Positions 1,424 to 4,169 of a stretch of DNA of 4,273 nt are shown one piece after another (position 1 is the first letter of the stretch; the number at the start of each line of letters is the position of its first letter). Position numbers and translations under genes: made by a program. Source of the DNA: Qubevirus faecium; sequence record FJ539134.1; one strand, 5' to 3'. The notes beneath the pieces were generated by a model. It had not been told where the DNA came from, did no database searches, and worked only from the letters and a program-made list of their open reading frames with translations.

Positions 1424-1822
1424 ATGGCAAAATTAAATCAGGTAACTCTTTCCAAAATCGGAAAGAATGGGGATCAGACTTTAACTCTTACACCGCGCGG
1501 GGTAAACCCGACGAACGGCGTGGCGTCGCTGTCTGAAGCTGGAGCTGTTCCGGCTTTGGAAAAGCGCGTGACTGTGTCAGTTGCGCAGCCTTCCCGTAAC
1601 CGTAAGAACTTTAAAGTTCAGATTAAACTCCAAAACCCGACTGCATGCACGAAGGACGCATGTGACCCATCTGTGACGCGATCTGCTTTCGCAGACGTAA
1701 CGCTGTCGTTCACGTCGTATTCTACCGACGAAGAACGTGCGCTAATTCGCACTGAGTTGGCAGCTCTGTTGCAGGACAATCTGATCATCGATGCAATCGA
1801 TAATCTGAATCCTGCTTACTGA
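1424..1822 (+). CDS. cp: Major coat protein
   Basis: ATG at 1424 gives MAKLNQVTL...NPAY, 132 codons plus UGA stop. Near-identical in blocks to Qbeta coat as I recall it (PRGVNPTNGVASLS, PALEKRVTVSV, QPSRNRKN, QNPTAC...CDPSVTR, STDEERA, RTELAALL, IDAI, LNPAY), including the two Cys residues. The track's 1418 start is a TTG two codons upstream; ATG 1424 is preferred. Confidence 0.95.
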   Translation: MAKLNQVTLSKIGKNGDQTLTLTPRGVNPTNGVASLSEAGAVPALEKRVTVSVAQPSRNRKNFKVQIKLQNPTACTKDACDPSVTRSAFADVTLSFTSYSTDEERALIRTELAALLQDNLIIDAIDNLNPAY

Positions 1823-2419
1823 GCAGCGTTACTGGTAGCCTCGTCCGGCGGTGGGGATAACCCCTCAATGCCAGACGTTCCGGATCTTCCAGACGTCAAA
1901 CCGCCTGACGGAACGGGGCGCTATACGTGCCCCTTCTCCTGTTACCGCCTCGGTAGTATCTACGAGGAGGGTAAGGACGGTTCTCCTGACATCTACGAAA
2001 GGGGAGACGAAGTCTCGGTTACTTTCGATTATGCTCTCGAGGATTTTCTTGGGAACACAAATTGGCGTAACTGGGATCAGCGATTGTCATCATATGACTT
2101 AGCTAATCGTCGTCGTTGCCGTGGCAACGGGTACATTGACTTAGATGCCACTGTGATGCAGTCAGACGAATTCGTTCTGTCTGGCCGTTATCCAGTGCGC
2201 AAGGTCAAGTTTCCCGGCGCTTTCGGCTCCATCAAGTATCTCTTGAACATTCAAGGCGATGCCTGGTTGGACTTATCCGAGGTGACAGCCTACCGTTCCT
2301 ACGGAATGGTTATTGGTTTCTGGACAGACTCTAAGAGCCCGCAGCTACCAACCGATTTCACGCAGTTTAACAGTGCTAATTGCCCTGTACAGACGGTGAT
2401 AATCATACCCTCACTTTAA
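1424..2419 (+). CDS. A1: A1 read-through protein (coat extended by UGA suppression; minor capsid protein)
   Basis: Coat frame continues past UGA to TAA at 2417-2419, 331 residues in all. The extension begins with a Gly-rich linker (SSGGGDNPS), then a Pro-rich segment and blocks matching Qbeta A1 from memory (GTGRYTCPF, LGNTNWR.WD.RLS, CRGNGYIDLDAT, PGAFG, VIGFW, FT.F....CP.Q.VI). Confidence 0.88.
1820..1822 (+). promoter_or_regulatory. Leaky UGA stop codon of the coat gene (programmed read-through site)
   Basis: UGA at 1820-1822 in context UAC-UGA-GCA. The same frame stays open through 1823-1867 (gca gcg tta ctg gta gcc tcg tcc ggc ggt ggg gat aac ccc tca) into the 1868-2419 ORF. Confidence 0.85.
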
Positions 2420-2434: not shown

Positions 2435-2454
2435 TAGCATGTCAAAGACAGCTA
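2435..2454 (+). promoter_or_regulatory. Replicase translational operator hairpin (coat-protein binding site): stem UAGC/GCUA + UGUC/GACA, bulged A, AAA loop; contains the replicase AUG
   Basis: Seen directly: 2435-2438 uagc pairs with 2451-2454 gcua; 2439 a is unpaired (bulge, first base of the AUG); 2440-2443 uguc pairs with 2447-2450 gaca; loop 2444-2446 aaa. Same architecture as the Qbeta operator (8-bp stem, bulged A, 3-nt loop) as I recall it. Confidence 0.8.
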
Positions 2455-4169
2455 GTCGCAGAAGAGAAATTACTCAGCTATTGGGTAAGGTCGACATCAA
2501 CTTCGAAGACGACATCCACATGTCTATTGCCAACGACCTCTTTGAGGCCTACGGCATCCCGAAACTTCAGAATGCTGAGGAGTGCATTAACACCGCATTC
2601 CCAAGCCTTGATCAAGGCGCAGACACATTTCGTGTCGAGTATTTGCGCGCTGAGATCTTATCGAAGTTCGACGGGCACCCTCTAGGTACTGATACCGAAA
2701 AGACAGCATGGGAGAAATTCCTGGCTGCTGAAGAGGGTTGTAGACTTACGAACGAACGACTGTCGCAGGTTAAGTACCACGATAATTCCATTTTGTCGTG
2801 GGGCGAGCGTGTAATTCATACTGCTCGCCGAAAAATACTTAAACTAATTGGCGAGTCTGTGCCGTTCGGGGATGTGGCGTTGCGCTGCCGATTTTCTGGC
2901 GGTGCAACGACCTCGGTAAACCGTTTACACGGTCATCCGTCGTGGAAGCATGCCTGTCCGCAGGATGTTACCAAACGCGCATTCAAGTACCTGCAAGCCT
3001 TTAAACGGGCGTGCGGTGACGTTGTAGATTTACGCGTCAACGAGGTGCGCACTTCAAATAAAGCAGTCACTGTTCCGAAGAATAGTAAGACTGATCGCTG
3101 TATCGCCATCGAACCCGGTTGGAATATGTTTTTCCAGCTCGGTGTAGGTGCGGTGCTACGCGATAGGTTGCGTTTATGGAAGATTGACCTTAATGATCAG
3201 TCGACCAACCAACGCCTCGCGCGGGATGGGTCTCTGCTAAATCATTTAGCTACCATAGACTTATCCGCAGCCAGTGATTCGATCAGCTTAAAGCTAGTTG
3301 AATTGCTGCTCCCTCCTGAATGGTATGACCTTCTGACAGATCTCCGATCTGATGAAGGCGTTTTACCTGATGGACGAGTTGTGACCTATGAGAAAATATC
3401 CTCCATGGGAAATGGCTACACTTTCGAGCTTGAGTCGCTTATTTTCGCGGCGCTCGCAAGAAGTGTGTGTGAGTTACTAGAAATCGACCAATCTACTGTT
3501 AGCGTGTACGGGGATGATATAATCATCGACACTCGTGCCGCAGCTCCATTAATGGATGTCTTTGAATACGTTGGGTTCACGCCTAACAAAAAGAAGACGT
3601 TCTGCGATGGACCCTTCCGCGAATCGTGCGGTAAGCACTGGTTCCAAGGGGTAGATGTAACGCCCTTTTACATACGCCGACCAATTCGTTGCCTTGCTGA
3701 TATGATACTGGTTTTAAACAGTATCTACAGGTGGGGCACTGTTGATGGTGTATGGGATCCTAGAGCACTGACCGTGTACGAAAAGTATCTCAAGTTGCTG
3801 CCAAGAAATTGGCGACGCAACCGGATACCAGACGGCTACGGAGACGGAGCTCTCGTCGGATTGGCTACGACGAACCCGTTCGTTATAGTTAAGAATTATT
3901 CAAGACTATACCCGGTATTAGTTGAAGTCCAGAGGGACGTCAAGCGTAGCGAGGTAGGCAGTTATCTATATGCCTTACTCCGCGATCGCGAGACACGTTA
4001 TAGTCCTTTCCTGCGTGACGCAGATAGGACTGGGTTTGATGAAGCGCCGCTAGCTACTAGCCTTCGTCGCAAGACAGGTCGGTACAAAGTGGCGTGGATT
4101 CAGGACAGTGCCTTCATCCGGCCCCCGTATTTCATTACGGGCATTCCCGAGGTGAAGCTTGCAAGCTAG
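2439..4169 (+). CDS. rep: RNA-dependent RNA polymerase (replicase beta subunit)
   Basis: 576-aa ORF, ATG with SD, TAG stop at 4167-4169. YGDD catalytic motif at 3507-3518 (VSVYGDDIIID). Long blocks match Qbeta replicase from memory (CRFSGGATT, NKAVTVPKNSKTDRCIAIEPGWNMFFQLG, LATIDLSAASDSISL, VTYEKISSMGNGYTFELESLIFA, FRESCGKH, GVDVTPFYIR, IPDGYGDGALVG). Confidence 0.96.
   Translation: MSKTASRRREITQLLGKVDINFEDDIHMSIANDLFEAYGIPKLQNAEECINTAFPSLDQGADTFRVEYLRAEILSKFDGHPLGTDTEKTAWEKFLAAEEGCRLTNERLSQVKYHDNSILSWGERVIHTARRKILKLIGESVPFGDVALRCRFSGGATTSVNRLHGHPSWKHACPQDVTKRAFKYLQAFKRACGDVVDLRVNEVRTSNKAVTVPKNSKTDRCIAIEPGWNMFFQLGVGAVLRDRLRLWKIDLNDQSTNQRLARDGSLLNHLATIDLSAASDSISLKLVELLLPPEWYDLLTDLRSDEGVLPDGRVVTYEKISSMGNGYTFELESLIFAALARSVCELLEIDQSTVSVYGDDIIIDTRAAAPLMDVFEYVGFTPNKKKTFCDGPFRESCGKHWFQGVDVTPFYIRRPIRCLADMILVLNSIYRWGTVDGVWDPRALTVYEKYLKLLPRNWRRNRIPDGYGDGALVGLATTNPFVIVKNYSRLYPVLVEVQRDVKRSEVGSYLYALLRDRETRYSPFLRDADRTGFDEAPLATSLRRKTGRYKVAWIQDSAFIRPPYFITGIPEVKLAS

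Follow-up and report, generated by a model that had tools for sequence, protein, structure and literature searches.

A coat cistron that ends in UGA at positions 1820-1822, with the same frame open behind it as far as position 2419, raises the question of whether the stop is leaky by nature, by what route the downstream coding sequence is reached, and whether the base that follows the stop has any bearing on how much of the longer product is made. Both the UGA and the open frame can be read directly from the sequence, as a preliminary description of this DNA had done. It had gone on to propose that read-through of the UGA produces the minor capsid protein A1 and that the G behind the stop, in place of the A given for Qbeta, might set the A1:coat ratio of this phage apart. 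In the following, the window is the whole stretch of DNA that was analyzed, at its full length of 4273 nt.

The window corresponds to the entire genome of Qubevirus faecium (formerly allolevivirus genogroup IV), an F-specific RNA coliphage that belongs to the Qbeta family. In a megablast search against GenBank phage records, it was matched over its full length by FI strain BR8 (FJ539135, likewise 4273 nt; 95.1% identity), by several phage SP records (91.6-92.0%) and by HB-P22, HB-P24, NL95 and FI (79-84%), all of which are classified as Qubevirus faecium. Qbeta was matched in partial stretches only, at ~72% identity. With ~5% nucleotide divergence from BR8, the genome would represent at most a new strain. 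Its genes lie as follows:

52-1404: A2, an ORF with a match to Pfam Phage_mat-A
1424-1822, plus strand: coat cistron of 132 aa (ATG at 1424) ending in the putatively leaky UGA; an ORF with a match to Pfam Levi_coat (E 1.4e-57), annotated at identical coordinates in BR8 (FJ539135)
2439-4169: replicase, an ORF with a match to Pfam RNA_replicase_B

The gene order, A2 maturation/lysis, coat with A1, and replicase, together with the absence of a separate lysis gene, is the Qubevirus arrangement. Nucleotide similarity and gene lengths both point to genogroup IV (Q. faecium) rather than genogroup III (Q. durum); A2, for example, has 450 aa in the window, as in SP, as against 420 aa in Qbeta. The ORF map of the window matches the BR8 annotation base for base, and four annotated coding sequences, one of them a "read-through protein", are common to BR8, SP and the map of the window.

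Around and behind the coat stop, the following features were distinguished:

1808-1819, plus strand: upstream context Asn-Pro-Ala-Tyr (AAU CCU GCU UAC), NPAY being invariant in all 30 sequences compared
1820-1822, plus strand: probable leaky UGA, the coat stop, read from the sequence; all of the 30 related coat/A1 junctions have UGA
1823-1824, plus strand: +4 G and +5 C, which also make up positions 1 and 2 of the Ala codon at the start of the extension (sequence and junction comparison)
1823-2419, plus strand: putative read-through extension of 198 codons plus UAA (translation, dN/dS against relatives, homology to Qbeta)
1841-1855, plus strand: Ser-Ser-Gly-Gly-Gly linker, from the translation; all four lineages have a Gly-rich stretch at the equivalent place
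1868-1870, plus strand: in-frame AUG (Met) in the linker, extension residue 16, unique to the window isolate among the relatives compared
1871-1912, plus strand: Pro-rich stretch PDVPDLPDVKPPDG, which aligns with chain residues 12-25 of 3RLC, where the read-through domain of Qbeta is likewise Pro-rich at its N terminus
1871-1878, plus strand: direct repeat ccagacgt, copy 1 (Pro-Asp-Val), from the sequence
1889-1896, plus strand: direct repeat ccagacgt, copy 2 (Pro-Asp-Val), from the sequence
1880-2410, plus strand: match to the PF16814 Read-through domain (extension residues 20-196)
2417-2419, plus strand: UAA terminator of A1; a second in-frame UAA (2426-2428) follows two codons after it, just ahead of the replicase Shine-Dalgarno sequence

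The coat frame is free of stops from 1823 to the TAA at 2417-2419, and its translation, which starts AALLVASSGGGDNPSMPDVPDLPDVKPPDG..., is recognizable as the read-through part of an A1 protein. The extension scores 169.8 bits (E 7e-50; cut-off, 27 bits) against Pfam PF16814 (Read-through); in a PDB search, the structure of the Qbeta A1 domain (3RLC/3RLK) aligned with extension residues 17-196 at E 1e-48 (9.8e-49), and the Qbeta extension itself is 43% identical to that of the window (E 3e-50). The similarity to Qbeta A1 that had been noticed from the letters alone is thus confirmed by profile, structure and direct alignment, and, given the scores against PF16814 and 3RLC, chance is far from explaining either the open frame or the homology.

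The segment directly behind the stop appears to be coding as well. Over the 96 nt that follow the UGA, the coat frame is stop-free in all 16 complete genomes and the other two frames contain stops in most of them; in the window, frame 0 is the sole stop-free frame over this distance. Extension dN/dS against five relatives is 0.06-0.24, and 0.18-0.44 over the first 30 codons, which indicates that the extension is under purifying selection, the 45 nt from the UGA to the first in-frame AUG included. Length differences in the linker among relatives are multiples of three. Moreover, the records of SP, NL95, FI, MX1, M11 and Qbeta annotate a coat protein together with a read-through product of a leaky stop, and the SP record (X07489) carries the note "readthrough stop codon".

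A second ORF overlaps this region. The +1-frame ORF at 1851-2102 (83 aa, GTG start) runs open in BR8 and SP as it does in the window, and it was rejected as a gene since it is interrupted in HB-P22, HB-P24, NL95 and Qbeta. The +1 frame of the A1 extension is poor in stops in all genomes compared (window 1839-2102), and the ORF is most likely a compositional effect.

Comparison of the stop context across allolevivirus genomes, a check that the preliminary description had suggested, was extended to 30 coat/A1 junctions, which comprise 15 distinct 18-nt contexts and fall into four lineages. The junctions came from 16 complete GenBank genomes, from IMG/VR contigs (where the scan returned nothing beyond SP, FI and two Qbeta-like contigs), from a DNA-pattern scan of JGI metagenomes and from contigs encoding extension homologues found in a search of 5.8 billion proteins. 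The first lineage is Q. faecium and the second Q. durum (Qbeta, MX1, M11 and relatives); the third is the single contig L022 (MAVO01000019.1), and the fourth is more distant and represented by a near-complete genome of 4175 nt (L023). NPAY-UGA-purine-C is present in 30 of the 30 junctions and in all four lineages, the window reading UAC UGA GC. The purine is G in all 13 Q. faecium-type sequences, SP among them, and in L022, and A in the Q. durum (Qbeta-type) and L023 lineages. Because a codon starts at position +4, this A/G difference switches the first residue of the extension, A giving Thr and G giving Ala.

The comparison bears out both the G at 1823 and the A after the Qbeta stop. What it does not bear out is the view of UGA-G as a peculiarity of this phage. 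As the G is shared without exception by the Q. faecium-type sequences compared, and also by one divergent contig, UGA-G is, as far as these sequences tell, a known lineage trait of the whole species and not a feature of the isolate, and it has been on public record since the SP sequence was deposited.

The two smaller lineages deserve separate mention. In L022 (1114-1790; MAVO01000019.1), the coat is 84% identical to that of Qbeta and the extension ~50% identical to those of both groups, and the junction is UGA-G followed by Ala-Ala-Leu, as in genogroup IV; this may be an intermediate or a recombinant lineage. L023 (1-4175; Logan SRR33038103), with L024-L028, is a near-complete genome of a Qubevirus-like lineage that is found in at least six samples and apparently has not been described so far. 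It encodes an A2 of 421 aa, a coat of 133 aa that would be extended by 198 aa on read-through of UGA-A, and a replicase that shares 53-58% identity with those of both Qbeta and the window; its 5' end carries a Nextera adapter remnant, AGATGTGTATAAGAGACAG. In the public assemblies (P0001-P0007, contigs L023-L035), automatic gene calls treat the read-through domain as a protein in its own right that begins at a spurious internal ATG, TTG or GTG, and the coat-A1 fusion is systematically missed.

We consider it highly likely that the UGA at 1820-1822 is the naturally leaky terminator of the coat cistron and that the extension is reached by read-through. Gene order, homology, the annotation of relatives and purifying selection all speak for the production of A1 in this way, as had been proposed, and the sequence offers nothing contrary to it.

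Two other accounts of how coat and extension relate can be weighed against these data. The read-through domain might be made mainly from the AUG at 1868 as a free protein of 183 aa, unfused to coat; the ATG at 1868-1870 is in frame and does start a 183-aa ORF, and an upstream GGUGG pairs with the 3' end of 16S rRNA at -6.2 kcal/mol, which ranks eighth among the 61 AUGs of the genome. However, this pairing falls short of those at the replicase start (-8.7 kcal/mol) and the A2 start (-9.1 kcal/mol), and the Shine-Dalgarno-like GGUGG lies ~11 nt upstream of the AUG, poorly spaced and inside a predicted GGGG/CCCC hairpin. The AUG itself is specific to the isolate: the homologous codon is AAG (Lys) in BR8, L020 and L029, the last of which encodes a coat protein identical to that of the window, and GAU (Asp) in SP. 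Furthermore, 10 of the 16 genomes lack any in-frame ATG, GTG or TTG within the first 96 nt (32 codons) of the extension, and the 45 nt between UGA and AUG are open, in frame and under purifying selection. Being isolate-specific and preceded only by a weak, distant Shine-Dalgarno-like element, AUG 1868 was rejected as the main route, which we regard as very improbable; an additional product started there is conceivable. Still less credible, to the point of being negligible, is an artifact in which a sense codon such as UGG was misread as UGA during sequencing or assembly and coat and extension would in truth always be fused. Any single sequence may contain an error, and this general possibility is all that speaks for such a reading; against it, all 30 independent sequences, isolates as well as metagenome assemblies, have UGA at the equivalent site, and a capsid composed of the 331-aa fusion alone is not what is described for this phage group (PMC8067240).

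A different question is whether the read-through we favor at this UGA is boosted by local RNA structure, be it a UGA-containing stem or a downstream hairpin, as in many eukaryotic viruses. The region 1760-1920 (161 nt) is more stably folded than its shuffles (z = -4.05), but RNA phage genomes of this type are structured throughout and such a value is usual for them, whereas the interval 1808-1870 folds just as shuffled sequence does (z = -0.07). Synonymous diversity near the stop is 0.333, against a regional mean of 0.337. Within genogroup IV (seven genomes), a stem GCNGCUC/GAGCNGC is predicted in which the G and A of the UGA, along with +4/+5, pair with coat sequence ~57 nt upstream; every column of this UGA-containing stem (1763-1766/1821-1824) is nevertheless invariant, with zero covariation, so that the stem may still have some role, and it is lost from the consensus once genogroup III sequences are added. 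A hairpin at 1841-1911, also in group IV, shows compensatory changes in a small number of pairs (among them UA:5/CG:2 and UA:3/UG:2/CG:2), but begins 19 nt past the stop. Known read-through stimulators stand closer, at a spacing of roughly 8 nt from the stop.

Across the genogroups, no conserved pairing within ~18 nt of the stop was detected in the III + IV alignment, and a search of the whole window against Rfam at E values up to 1 gave zero matches. A similar lack of dependence on structure was reported for an E. coli reporter library, in which predicted mRNA structure was uncorrelated with read-through hotspots (PMC11126739). Judged by these comparisons, the junction does not look like a structure-stimulated signal of the eukaryotic-virus type, and we consider a boost from local structure improbable. 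Since conserved structure and excess synonymous conservation are both absent around the stop, the local context looks sufficient, and the leakiness most likely rests on the stop and its immediate neighbors (NPAY-UGA-purine-C), not on a larger RNA structure. A short local context is also the signal generally assumed for Qbeta.

Other structures were seen farther from the stop. A hairpin at 1783-1805, toward the 3' end of the coat gene, is kept in genogroups III and IV with compensatory changes, the pair types at two positions being UA:8/GC:6 and AU:9/GC:4/GU:2. A small GGGN/NCCC hairpin ~31 nt downstream of the stop also survives in the III + IV consensus. In the window, the GGGG/CCCC hairpin at 1853-1864 is formed by linker Gly codons (GGN) followed by a Pro codon (CCN), and Qbeta-type genomes have GGG...CCC equivalents; it is probably a by-product of coding. 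Over the replicase start, at 2435-2454, a hairpin with a loop of 3 nt and one bulged A, UAGC-A-UGUC AAA GACA GCUA, is predicted, and the homologous site of Qbeta is predicted to fold alike; we take the hairpin of the window to have the form of the Qbeta coat-protein operator.

By analogy with Qbeta and E. coli, the following course of events can be proposed. Most ribosomes that arrive at the UGA, with tRNA-Tyr in the P site (the codon before the stop being UAC), would be terminated by RF2, giving the coat protein of 132 aa. As in Qbeta, a near-cognate tRNA would insert an amino acid at the UGA in a small share of passages; in Qbeta and in E. coli generally, this is tRNA-Trp. Translation would then continue in frame for 198 more codons to the UAA at 2417-2419 and yield the minor capsid protein A1, whose 331 aa (1424-1819, the decoded UGA and the extension) would comprise the coat domain, a short hydrophobic segment with the Gly-rich tether (AALLVASSGGG), the Pro-rich segment and the globular read-through domain. 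A few copies of A1 would replace coat subunits in the capsid and, if Qbeta is a guide, would be needed for infectivity. The Qbeta stop is read through at ~5%, as Trp (PMC6071253), or in 1 of 15 passages according to another account, in which the A1 domains are described as flexibly attached (PMC8067240); A1 is required for infectivity there, its precise role not being known (PMC13114773). What is said here of how often the UGA is read through in the window isolate, which amino acid is inserted and whether A1 enters virions is extrapolated from Qbeta. The predicted tryptic peptide across the junction has ~50 residues, TELAALLQDNLIIDAIDNLNPAY-X-AALLVASSGGGDNPSMPDVPDLPDVK, and the joined sequence reads ...NLNPAY-X-AALLVASSGGG....

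The tether differs slightly from how it was first described, as opening with SSGGG: this linker is present, preceded by the six mostly hydrophobic residues AALLVA (1823-1840). The Pro-rich stretch and the two copies of ccagacgt are present as described. In Qbeta, the N-terminal Pro-rich part of the read-through domain is described in reviews as forming a long polyproline II helix (PMC6526423, PMC8067240). The repeat on its own is statistically unremarkable as DNA: five short-range 8-mer repeats were found in the genome against ~2.3 expected, and 13% of simulated genomes had at least five. The repeat has been retained in BR8, SP and HB-P22, with P-D-V...P-D-V as its translation.

Whether the G at +4 affects how often the UGA is read through is less easily answered. 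Termination at UGA-N in E. coli reportedly ranks U > G > A ~ C in strength, an order that would conflict with a reporter library published in 2024 and is given no weight here. In that library, T after the stop raised termination efficiency and G lowered it, and TGA was decoded mostly as Trp and partly as Cys (PMC11126739). A summary of older work gives U after the stop as the best context for termination and C after UGA as a poor one, and describes UGA-A in E. coli as particularly prone to misreading by tRNA-Trp (PMC5289835). These published context data give no clear direction for the effect of G versus A on the A1:coat ratio, and a search of the literature available found no measured A1 content for a genogroup IV phage. 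The suggestion that UGA-G alters the ratio is therefore neither supported nor refuted. It is conceivable, if rather unlikely, that A or G at +4 serves as a tuning device, with different read-through rates or a different near-cognate tRNA in each lineage. If so, genogroup IV virions would be expected to differ systematically from those of Qbeta in the number of A1 copies or in the junction residue, and the selected effect could lie at the level of the RNA or at that of the protein (Thr/Ala).

The closest known counterparts are the A1 proteins of genogroup IV (SP X07489, FI EF068134, NL95 AF059243, BR8, HB-P22 and HB-P24). They have the same map, with a coat of 132 aa and an A1 of 331 aa; the junction, NPAY-UGA-GCR-GCG-UUA, is identical to that of the window, and the linker AALL(V/A)(A/S)S..GG, the Pro-rich P-D-V repeats and the UAA terminator followed by GCA are as in the window. 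Identity of the extension to that of the window runs from 97% in BR8 and 94% in SP to 84% in HB-P22, 73% in FI and 68% in NL95. The window differs from these relatives at strain level only, by Met in place of Lys or Asp at extension residue 16 and by changes such as that at residue 22, which is Leu in the window and BR8, Val in SP and Pro in L029, and differs in other relatives.

Qbeta (Qubevirus durum, genogroup III) shares with the window the context NPAY-UGA-purine-C, an extension of ~195-200 codons, the Gly-rich tether, the Pro-rich N-terminal segment and the PF16814 domain. It differs in having A at +4 and Thr as the first extension residue (G and Ala in the window), an extension of 195 aa rather than 198 aa, a coat of 133 codons as against 132 aa, and, with genogroup III as a whole, a tandem UAG-UAA in place of UAA at the end of A1. 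Natural UGA read-through in Qbeta was reportedly described by Weiner and Weber in 1971, and three proteins of Qbeta and SP are said, in the title of a 1995 report by Priano et al. (cited in PMC8067240), to be interchangeable, which fits a common function.

Leaky UGA codons of E. coli genes presumably involve the same host machinery, RF2 in competition with near-cognate tRNA-Trp, and a +4 base other than U (PMC5289835, PMC11126739). Leakiness of cellular UGA codons is mostly error, whereas the leak of the phage is kept by selection, its product presumably being a required virion component. Eukaryotic viruses likewise obtain a major short and a minor extended product in fixed ratio from one start, the alphaviruses with UGA-C and a 3' stem and the retroviruses, for gag-pol, with UAG and a pseudoknot. 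In their signals, RNA structure conserved on the 3' side and synonymous sites that vary less than usual are common (PMC3159437); the window shows neither.

In summary, a leaky UGA in this phage species is already known; it belongs to a textbook case of natural UGA read-through, and the same context had been annotated before. The practical value of the analysis lies in a correct protein set for the genome, in which gene callers would otherwise place the read-through domain in an ORF of its own. The NPAY-UGA-purine-C shared by all 30 junctions, with no conserved structure detected nearby, represents a compact natural bacterial read-through cassette that exists in two +4 variants, A and G.
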